A model generated the notes under the pieces. It was not told the origin of the DNA, did no database searches, and saw only the letters and a program-made list of their open reading frames with translations. Position numbers and translations under genes: made by a program. 64,000 nt of DNA, from assembly GCA_964016885.1 (NCBI GenBank), contig OZ024744.1:29326001-29390000 (forward strand), read 5' to 3'. Shown here in pieces: positions 341 through 2,090 of this stretch. This stretch comes from Eledone cirrhosa (taxonomy: Eukaryota). The stretch's first letter is position 1; each line of letters begins with the position of its first letter.

Positions 341-481
341 ATATATATATATATATATATATATATATATATATATATATATATATATATATATATATAT
401 ATATATATATATATATATATATATATATATATATATATATATGTATATGTATATATATATATATATATATATATATATATA
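341..481. repeat. (TA)n microsatellite
   Basis: Direct reading. Similar (TA)n tracts occur at 3588-3758, 8504-8667 and elsewhere. The YIYIYI ORFs are artefacts of these tracts. Confidence 0.98.
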
Positions 482-2090
482 TTAAATGCTCTGAAATAGC
501 GATATATATGTGAAGATAGACATAGAATATTCGAAAATATTCTGTATGTTTATAATAAACATTTTGAAGACCTAATCGCTATAGAATAGAATACGTCACG
601 TATTACAATTAGATTCTCGATAAAAGCAAGGGAAGTAACCTACGCGTTTCATTCTTATTAGAAATCTTCAGGATTACATATCCAGTGCTTTTATCGAGAA
701 TGACACAGCTAGAGACTTATAGAATACTTAGCTGTGTACAGGAACTGGTTTGAAAGAGCGGTTGCCGGTCCGGCAGAAATTAGAAATTGGATTAAATGCT
801 CTGAAATAGCGATATATATGTGAAGATAGACATAGAATATTCGAAAATATTCTGTATGTTTATAATAAACATTTTGAAGACCTAATCGCTATAGAATAGA
901 ATACGTCACGTATTACAATTAGATTCTCGATAAAAGCAAGGGAAGTAACCTACGCGTTTCATTCTTATTAGAAATCTTCAGGATTACATATCCAGTACTT
1001 TTATCGAGAATGACACAGCTAGAGACTTATAGAATACTTAGCTGTGTACAGGAACTGGTTTGAAAGAGCGGTTGCCGGTCCGGCAGAAATTAGAAATTGG
1101 ATTAAATGCTCTGAAATAGCGATATATATGTGAAGATAGACATAGAATATTCGAAAATATTCTGTATGTTTATAATAAACATTTTGAAGACCTAATCGCT
1201 ATAGAATAGAATACGTCACGTATTACAATTAGATTCTCGATAAAAGCAAGGGAAGTAACCTACGCGTTTCATTCTTATTAGAAATCTTCAGGATTACAAA
1301 TCCAGTGCTTTTATCGAGAATGACACAGCTAGAGACTTATAGAATACTTAGCTGTGTACAGGAACTGGTTTGAAAGAGCGGTTGCCGGTCCGGCAGAAAT
1401 TAGAAATTGGATTAAATGCTCTGAAATAGCGATATATATGTGAAGATAGACATAGAATATTCGAAAATATTCTGTATGTTTATAATAAACATTTTGAAGA
1501 CCTAATCGCTATAGAATAGAATACGTCACGTATTACAATTAGATTCTCGATAAAAGCAAGGGAAGTAACCTACGCGTTTCATTCTTATTAGAAATCTTCA
1601 GGATTACATATCCAGTGCTTTTATCGAGAATGACACAGCTAGAGACTTATAGAATACTTAGCTGTGTACAGGAACTGGTTTGAAAGAGCGGTTGCCGGTC
1701 CGGCAGAAATTAGAAATTGGATTAAATGCTCTGAAATAGCGATATATATGTGAAGATAGACATAGAATATTCGAAAATATTCTGTATGTTTATAATAAAC
1801 ATTTTGAAGACCTAATCGCTATAGAATAGAATACGTCACGTATTACAATTAGATTCTCGATAAAAGCAAGGGAAGTAACCTACGCGTTTCATTCTTATTA
1901 GAAATCTTCAGGATTACATATCCAGTGCTTTTATCGAGAATGACACAGCTAGAGACTTATAGAATACTTAGCTGTGTACAGGAACTGGTTTGAAAGAGCG
2001 GTTGCCGGTCCGGCAGAAATTAGAAATTGGATTAAATGCTCTGAAATAGCGATATATATGTGAAGATAGACATAGAATATTCGAAAATAT
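481..2090 (-). repeat. Tandem array of a 310-bp unit (5 full copies plus a partial), each with a minus-strand hammerhead ribozyme (retrozyme-like satellite A)
   Basis: attaaatgctctgaaatagc recurs at 481, 791, 1101, 1411, 1721 and 2031, and the copies are nearly identical. Confidence 0.97.
635..677 (-). ncRNA. Type I hammerhead ribozyme of the 310-bp unit (further copies at 945-987, 1255-1297, 1565-1607, 1875-1917)
   Basis: The minus strand reads gtaatc-CTGAAGA-t-ttct-aata-agaa-t-GAAA-cgcg-TA-ggttac. This gives a full core, stem I gtaatc/ggttac, stem II ttct/agaa, palindromic stem III ACGCGT and a GUA cleavage triplet. It is enclosed by a 16-bp perfect inverted repeat (613-628/686-701). Confidence 0.88.

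Follow-up and report, generated by a model that had tools for sequence, protein, structure and literature searches.

Head-to-head insertions of hammerhead-bearing tandem repeats at (TA)n in Eledone cirrhosa, and a rare join between two such families

The window, a stretch of 64,000 nucleotides of the Eledone cirrhosa assembly (contig OZ024744.1, positions 29,326,001 to 29,390,000, forward strand), contains a 310-bp tandem array, array A, which is one arm of a young genome-wide hammerhead-motif family inserted at (TA)n, mostly as back-to-back arms. In the window this arm is joined head-to-head with an arm of a second hammerhead family, B. The earlier note on this DNA had singled out that layout as special; it is the normal form of A/A and B/B insertions, and only the mixing of families is rare. 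The family-wide two-arm anatomy is the stronger result, and the A/B join is a rare by-product of it. An inverted copy plus a tail is a known signature of Penelope-like elements (PLEs). Our literature search, thin for subscription journals and covering the retrozyme preprint without its supplements, returned no report of two-armed, tail-bearing retrozyme insertions or of mixed-family joins, and on retrozymes the signature is apparently new. Near-identical insertions of this 310-nt non-coding unit, in their hundreds and with the full PLE signature, would link retrozymes to PLE enzymes through insertion anatomy instead of phylogeny. The A unit, short, defined and with start sites that are known, could also serve as a substrate for in vitro tests of twin-primed rolling-circle reverse transcription.

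Array A, its hammerhead motifs and its junction with arm B1

TRF resolved array A (481-2091, minus strand) into 5.2 copies of a 310-bp period with 99% matches; the units have a GC content of 0.32 and differ from one another only at positions 997 and 1299. A motif scan of both strands found GUAAUC-CUGAAGA-UUUCUAAUAAGAAU-GAAA-CGCG-UA-GGUUAC on the minus strand in five units, and the same scan returned no hammerhead motif in 5000 dinucleotide shuffles of the A unit or in 5000 of the B unit, bearing out the five near-identical minus-strand hammerhead units reported before. The features of the two arms are as follows.

340-482, no strand: (TA)n tract bordering arm A on its outer side (the RNA 3' end); putative priming target (TRF, sequence)
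481-2091, minus strand: array A, one arm; outer end at unit position 310 (long, tail-bearing class), inner end at unit position 250, in a hairpin
481-502, minus strand: part of the family A tail, the interval from one fixed outer end to the other (the short end, unit position 289, is window position 502)
613-628 and 686-701, no strand: 16-bp inverted repeat that extends stem I and recurs in each A unit (sequence)
635-677, minus strand: type I hammerhead motif, unit 1 (motif scan); predicted cut after GUA, 641/640
945-987, minus strand: type I hammerhead motif, unit 2 (motif scan)
1255-1297, minus strand: type I hammerhead motif, unit 3 (motif scan)
1565-1607, minus strand: type I hammerhead motif, unit 4 (motif scan)
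1875-1917, minus strand: type I hammerhead motif, unit 5 (motif scan)
2089-2091, no strand: A/B junction, overlap of 2-3 nt (ATT), no spacer (sequence)
2089-3587, plus strand: arm B1, belonging to an abundant and young B subfamily; it has 3.5 units, each ~422-430 bp, and a long-class outer end
3587-3777, no strand: (TA)n tract bordering arm B1 on its outer side (TRF)

The modal long end of family A would fall 5 nt beyond window position 481. The 16-bp inverted repeat, described earlier as perfect, is so in four of the five units; in unit 2 the change at 997 gives a G-U pair in the RNA. In the A hammerhead, stem III consists of a single base pair capped by the palindromic tetraloop CGCG. The A and B hammerheads are built alike, each with a palindromic loop III and with a 4-bp stem II that has U-U at its base, while the sequences of stem I, stem II and the loop III palindrome differ (CGCG in A, CUAG in B). 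The arrays have no blastn similarity (best E 0.79); the earlier description of them as otherwise unrelated holds at this level. Against the Rfam hammerhead families (CL00010), A and B scored below gathering (best HH9, 17.1 bits versus 52, E 0.051; no other hammerhead family was listed), and over window positions 1-6000 Rfam returned only chance microRNA-type matches, mostly in TA-rich stretches. The predicted minimum-energy fold, of the A motif and of the A circle alike, is not the hammerhead fold, and the ACGCGU self-duplex of A has a computed energy of -7.5 kcal/mol. Axolotl retrozyme motifs are described as having a weak helix III with a palindromic tetraloop and a U-U at the base of helix II, both found in A and B as well, and as cleaving best as dimers (PMC7229834). 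By analogy with them, the single-pair stem III and palindromic loop suggest that A RNA may cleave as a dimer.

Non-LTR retrozymes are hammerhead-bearing tandem repeats of metazoans (Cervera and de la Pena 2020, PMC7229834). Like them, A and B are dispersed, non-coding tandem repeats in which each of the short, low-GC units carries one type I hammerhead: array A has a type I hammerhead core in each unit of a low-GC tandem repeat within 150-450 bp, its longest stop-to-stop frame is 59 aa, leaving no protein-coding frame, and near-identical copies are scattered genome-wide. This anatomy is consistent with A and B being retrozyme families, for which self-cleavage is predicted; expression and cleavage were demonstrated in the papers on described retrozymes (PMC7229834; Li, Clavereau and Pollet, bioRxiv 10.64898/2026.07.22.740005). 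Unlike the described retrozymes, A and B mostly occur as two-armed, head-to-head copies whose outer ends lie in (TA)n at two fixed positions. The main text of PMC7229834 does not use the word "inverted", and in the text of the preprint, which proposes a PLE origin of retrozymes from phylogeny, it occurs only within a reference.

Arrays A and B1 meet without a spacer, as the earlier note stated; the exact boundary that it placed at 2090/2091 does not hold, the overlap being the 2-3 nt ATT listed above, or 2 nt if the B allele carried C there. The 24-mer across the junction occurs once in the assembly. Since the A hammerheads lie on the minus strand and those of arm B1 (CUGACGA motifs at 2417-2459, 2841-2883 and 3271-3313, motif scan) on the plus strand, the ribozyme strands do diverge from the join. 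Pairwise divergence is 0.44% in arm B1 versus 0.23% in arm A. A B1-type exact 25-mer has 1790 matches in the assembly, and most B1-type arms elsewhere are also young (0-0.6%).

In three sequence runs (X4, X5 and X6) compared at 1500-2700, one 340-letter contig each was ~97-98% like A. That length equals one unit plus 30, the size expected of a closed loop of 31-mers; in this form tandem DNA and an RNA circle look the same.

Insertion anatomy of families A and B

The assembly comprises 3.0 Gb in 1796 contigs; its richness in SINEs and TA is reminiscent of octopus genomes. A DNA search for A scored 40 of 284 candidate places and gave 243 matches, those listed being 97-100% identical. Besides the window, the unselected sample held 39 loci, of which one lay at a contig end and 38 were informative. 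Head-to-head A/A pairs occupied 28 of these 38 loci, in the layout (TA)n, left-pointing arm, right-pointing arm, (TA)n. The outer ends fell almost entirely into two classes 26 nt apart: 32 of 67 arm ends were short (unit positions 282-289), 34 were long (308-12) and one lay elsewhere, and 27 of the 28 pairs combined one long with one short end. With the exception of one locus (L041), the visible outer ends in this sample adjoined TA-rich sequence.

A census by exact patterns found 107 long and 165 short A ends, which were paired by coordinate, the unpaired ones being inspected. It covered 160 of the 165 short ends (five on a duplicated cluster on C28 were omitted) and 95 of the 107 long ends (seven were not listed and five not retrieved); its counts are of ends and not of independent events, since some loci are segmental duplicates. 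Among the 255 ends thus resolved or inspected, 210 belonged to head-to-head A/A pairs. Of the 160 short ends, 130 belonged to A/A pairs; the rest were backed by a tiny A arm (4), by TA or simple repeat (17) or by other sequence (9). For the 95 long ends the counts were 80, 1, 4 and 9 in the same order, with one unassigned.

We examined 84 A/A pairs in sequence, 4 of them clipped by the edge of the stretch. The 80 uncut pairs included 69 with long plus short ends, one long+long, one short+short and nine with a non-standard end. At the joins of the 84 pairs, the arms overlapped by 1-10 nt in 55, met bluntly in 10, were separated by an insert in 15 and shared a longer overlap in 4. Family B is built similarly, with outer ends at unit positions 224 and ~168: 12 of 15 B pairs were long+short and 3 had a non-standard end, and in a B1-type sample (~13 loci) every pair with both ends visible was long+short.

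One A/A pair appears to have been amplified at least nine times in a tandemly duplicated block (G000:C28:43310016-43360017). Within the window, an older A relative (~75%) at 60515-61120 is itself head-to-head, and the same family adjoins an A arm at another locus (L040).

Template RNA and candidate enzyme

Over five polymorphic columns, the two arms of A/A pairs disagreed at 2 of 250 comparisons (75 pair rows, with one locus entered twice), as against 14.7% mismatches (SD 1.4, minimum 9.0) in 2000 permutations of the pairs. Rare variants were common to both arms at L122, L126, L150, L166 and L177, and not at L060 and L132. The simplest reading of the shared variants is that each A/A pair was copied from one template RNA; the concordance could also come from a single dominant RNA variant per germ cell, or from gene conversion between arms.

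Several observations bear on the form of that template. A arms were longer than one unit in 85 of 138 cases, and 134 of 168 continued past the predicted cut site. Because just 3 of 168 inner ends lay at that site, we rejected a linear monomer as template. Variants specific to one unit, at equal distance from the outer end, were shared by the arms in 2 cases and unshared in 59, which disfavours a multimeric transcript. A circular template for A is thus favoured above a linear monomer or the copying of a multimer. Simple fold-back copying of the first cDNA was rejected too, neither arm being contained in the other in 22 of 69 pairs; this containment test rests on the 26-nt tail, and a hairpin intermediate trimmed at one end, in line with the self-priming hairpin idea put forward for PLEs in PMC3846280, is compatible with it. 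Recurrent stall points were considered (10 of 168 inner ends at unit positions 244-254, with ~6 expected by even spread), and the argument was left unused. Taken together, these patterns point to twin-primed, rolling-circle copying of one RNA as the probable route for A.

The nearest match to this anatomy is found in PLEs, for which PMC8557442 and PMC3846280 describe an inverted 5'-truncated copy, a tail at one end and a bias to (TA)n. PMC11167929 describes a purified PLE protein, modelled as a dimer, that nicks and extends both strands; its two start sites are internal and adjacent, with the tail lying between them. Like PLEs with an inverted pLTR and tail (PMC8557442, PMC3846280, PMC11167929), families A and B have an inverted, 5'-truncated copy immediately abutting the 5' end, a one-sided tail, (TA)n or AT-rich targets and, in the course proposed below, two adjacent RT start sites with both strands extended; the tail measures 26 nt in A and 56 nt in B versus 30-40 in the PLEs described. 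In contrast to PLEs, neither A nor B codes for a protein, and their arms consist of whole units repeated in tandem. How retrozymes enter animal genomes, and why head-to-head PLE copies with a one-sided tail arise, are called open in PMC8557442, PMC3846280 and PMC11167929.

L1 twin priming offers a second comparison. There, reverse transcription of one RNA is primed from two DNA ends, and microcomplementarity links the resulting cDNAs; the second primer pairs with an internal site by chance, and each cDNA represents a different stretch of a linear RNA (bioRxiv 10.1101/2024.08.27.596794). The variable internal second site and non-overlapping copies of that process were not found in family A, in which, unlike L1, neither start site varies, the two arms represent one and the same region, poly(A) is absent and most insertions have the two-arm form.

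The window holds a PLE of its own next to the (TA)n run of arm B1.

3874-5209, minus strand: 5'-truncated PLE in two-arm layout (no Pfam match)
3874-5151, minus strand: long arm of the PLE
5152-5209: short inverted arm of the PLE

The short inverted arm is 58 nt long and ends 86 nt short of the long arm, and the element conforms to the long-plus-short rule seen in A and B. A 288-aa open frame (4213-5079) resembles GIY-YIG-bearing clusters and gave no match in a Pfam search; it is 44% identical to the PLE partner of an A arm at L055. The window PLE may be Neptune-like. Genome-wide, (TA)n ends are common to A, B and several PLE families, and in this the earlier suggestion of a shared insertion niche is upheld. 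A search for sequence common to A or B and PLEs gave no match to partial copies of four PLE families. The L055 partner belongs to a young PLE family (L055, L194-L199) with 1585 candidates, 99-100% identical among the 40 scored, which is a candidate driver; some of its copies are head-to-head.

From these data we would propose the following course. The A unit would be transcribed, would cleave itself, probably as a dimer through the ACGCGU palindrome, and would be circularised. A PLE protein with RT and GIY-YIG activities would then nick both strands of a (TA)n run and reverse-transcribe the same RNA from two fixed sites 26 nt apart, a step suggested by the end positions and by the in vitro work on another PLE. 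Each cDNA would circle for a variable length, and the inner ends, which carry short microhomology at the observed joins, would be joined through it.

Origin of the A/B join

The search for other A/B junctions that the earlier note called for found no further A to B1-type join among ~255 A ends; at one locus (L155) A is joined to a diverged relative of B (73-87%, local alignments). Outer ends set the window join apart as well: it is long+long, unlike the ordinary pairs of one long and one short end. The proposal that the two families were joined by template switching does not fit in the usual RNA-to-RNA sense, which would be expected to yield a fusion on the same strand and not a head-to-head one.

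We lean, with moderate confidence, to a sequential origin, in which an orphan arm would have become linked to an insertion next to it, the spacer being lost. An A arm or a B1 arm would have been added at the TA run beside the other family's insertion, its inner end annealing across, so that the TA run and any short arm between were lost. Long+long ends are also expected from two independent first primings. The order of the A and B1 events cannot be read from the sequence. Mixed joins elsewhere give this reading some context, 18 of 255 A ends being joined to neighbours that are neither TA nor A. PLE partners point away from the A arm at L050, L119, L141 and L149 and towards it at L248 and L260. 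The nearest relatives of the outward partners (40 scored candidates each) are 98% identical at L149, ~99% at L119 and 99-100% at L055; at only 98% and ~99%, the L149 and L119 partners look older than A. At L055 the geometry matches that of the window join, and the PLE arm that A meets is as young as A itself. A arms thus appear to become joined to older neighbours, and a join to one of the same age is seen too. Another mixed pair, an older one, lies at L083 (G000:C52), where a B arm is joined head-to-head to a 204-nt fragment from a third hammerhead family, the fragment ending in TA. An orientation bias of the mixed PLE partners, all seemingly pointing away from A, was dropped when the two pointing towards it were found later.

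A single insertion of both families is clearly less probable, and we keep it as a tentative alternative. One PLE dimer, or two complexes, holding an A circle and a B circle would have primed both strands of one (TA)n run, and the cDNAs would have been joined. The geometry and the short overlap are those of A/A joins, both outer ends are of the long class, and a PLE protein modelled as a dimer extends both strands in vitro (PMC11167929). Arm B1 is as young as arm A, and the young L055 partner, joined in the same geometry, fits co-insertion equally well; the equal age is non-discriminating, B1-type arms being young elsewhere (0-0.6% in most), and the remaining mixed partners either seem to predate A or have the opposite orientation. 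The arms of A/A pairs, moreover, nearly always have variants in common, and a single A/B1 join among ~255 ends makes the pairing of two RNAs rare at best. A further age argument for co-insertion, that B1 was the youngest of 13 multi-unit B arms, was dropped: the sample was biased to older copies, and the B1 type is a large young subfamily. It is conceivable, if rather doubtful, that a dimeric Penelope enzyme that normally holds one circle held two here, and that the join records a single two-RNA insertion. If this were true, PLE machinery in the germ line would be producing head-to-head fusions between circular RNAs that are unrelated. The mixed join is a case that could reveal whether one event can draw on two RNAs.

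Later deletion is an unlikely source. It supposes adjacent A/A and B/B palindromes from which one deletion near or between the centres took both short arms, which would account for the long+long ends; A/A pairs with one arm cut at a non-standard point without TA are known (L041, L139, L140, L147 and L160), and the locus has already undergone a 4.9-kb duplication. Deletion requires short arms facing inwards and a second event soon after two young insertions, and by sequence alone it is inseparable from the sequential reading.

We think it very improbable that the join is a rearrangement bridge, in which A and B would have been primed simultaneously at two TA sites and the joining of their cDNAs would have fused flanks that were not neighbours. 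Such a bridge would give long+long ends and has a precedent in tumours, where two distinct 5'-truncated L1s are joined at their 5' breakpoints (bioRxiv 10.1101/2024.08.27.596794); these rare L1 bridges are the nearest precedent for a join of two different elements. No reciprocal bridge of A-short to B1-short was present among 160 of the 165 exact short ends, a test that is incomplete because a deletion product leaves no reciprocal.

An assembly or chimeric-read artefact is the least credible source: the junction occurs once in the assembly, and four contig-form runs, which have fixed differences from this A, have no listed piece across it, which counts neither way, but the join lies at a 2-3 nt overlap of unrelated sequences outside any shared repeat, has the same form as more than 100 A/A joins and is flanked on either side by resolved unit-level variants.

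The locus around the join is a pile-up of TA-ended elements. A 4.9-kb tandem duplication links 3760-5853 with 8668-10750, which differ by 6 substitutions over 2081 aligned bases. At 5912-8505, a B array begins like the array at 10805 and ends like B1, the pattern expected from unequal crossing-over of two B insertions, and a copy of an older B subfamily (5221-5856, ~81% to B1) lies between the short PLE arm and that array. Hammerhead-like cores of other families occur at 257, 45874, 50360, 59818 and 60069/60358; the core at 257 is minimal and lies just before the left TA run, and those at 60069/60358 form an inverted pair. Several further hammerhead types were seen at the other loci inspected. 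The window also contains LINE-type reverse transcriptase frames at 27479-30903 (RVT_1, split over two frames) and 37409-40558 (RVT_1 and zf-RVT).
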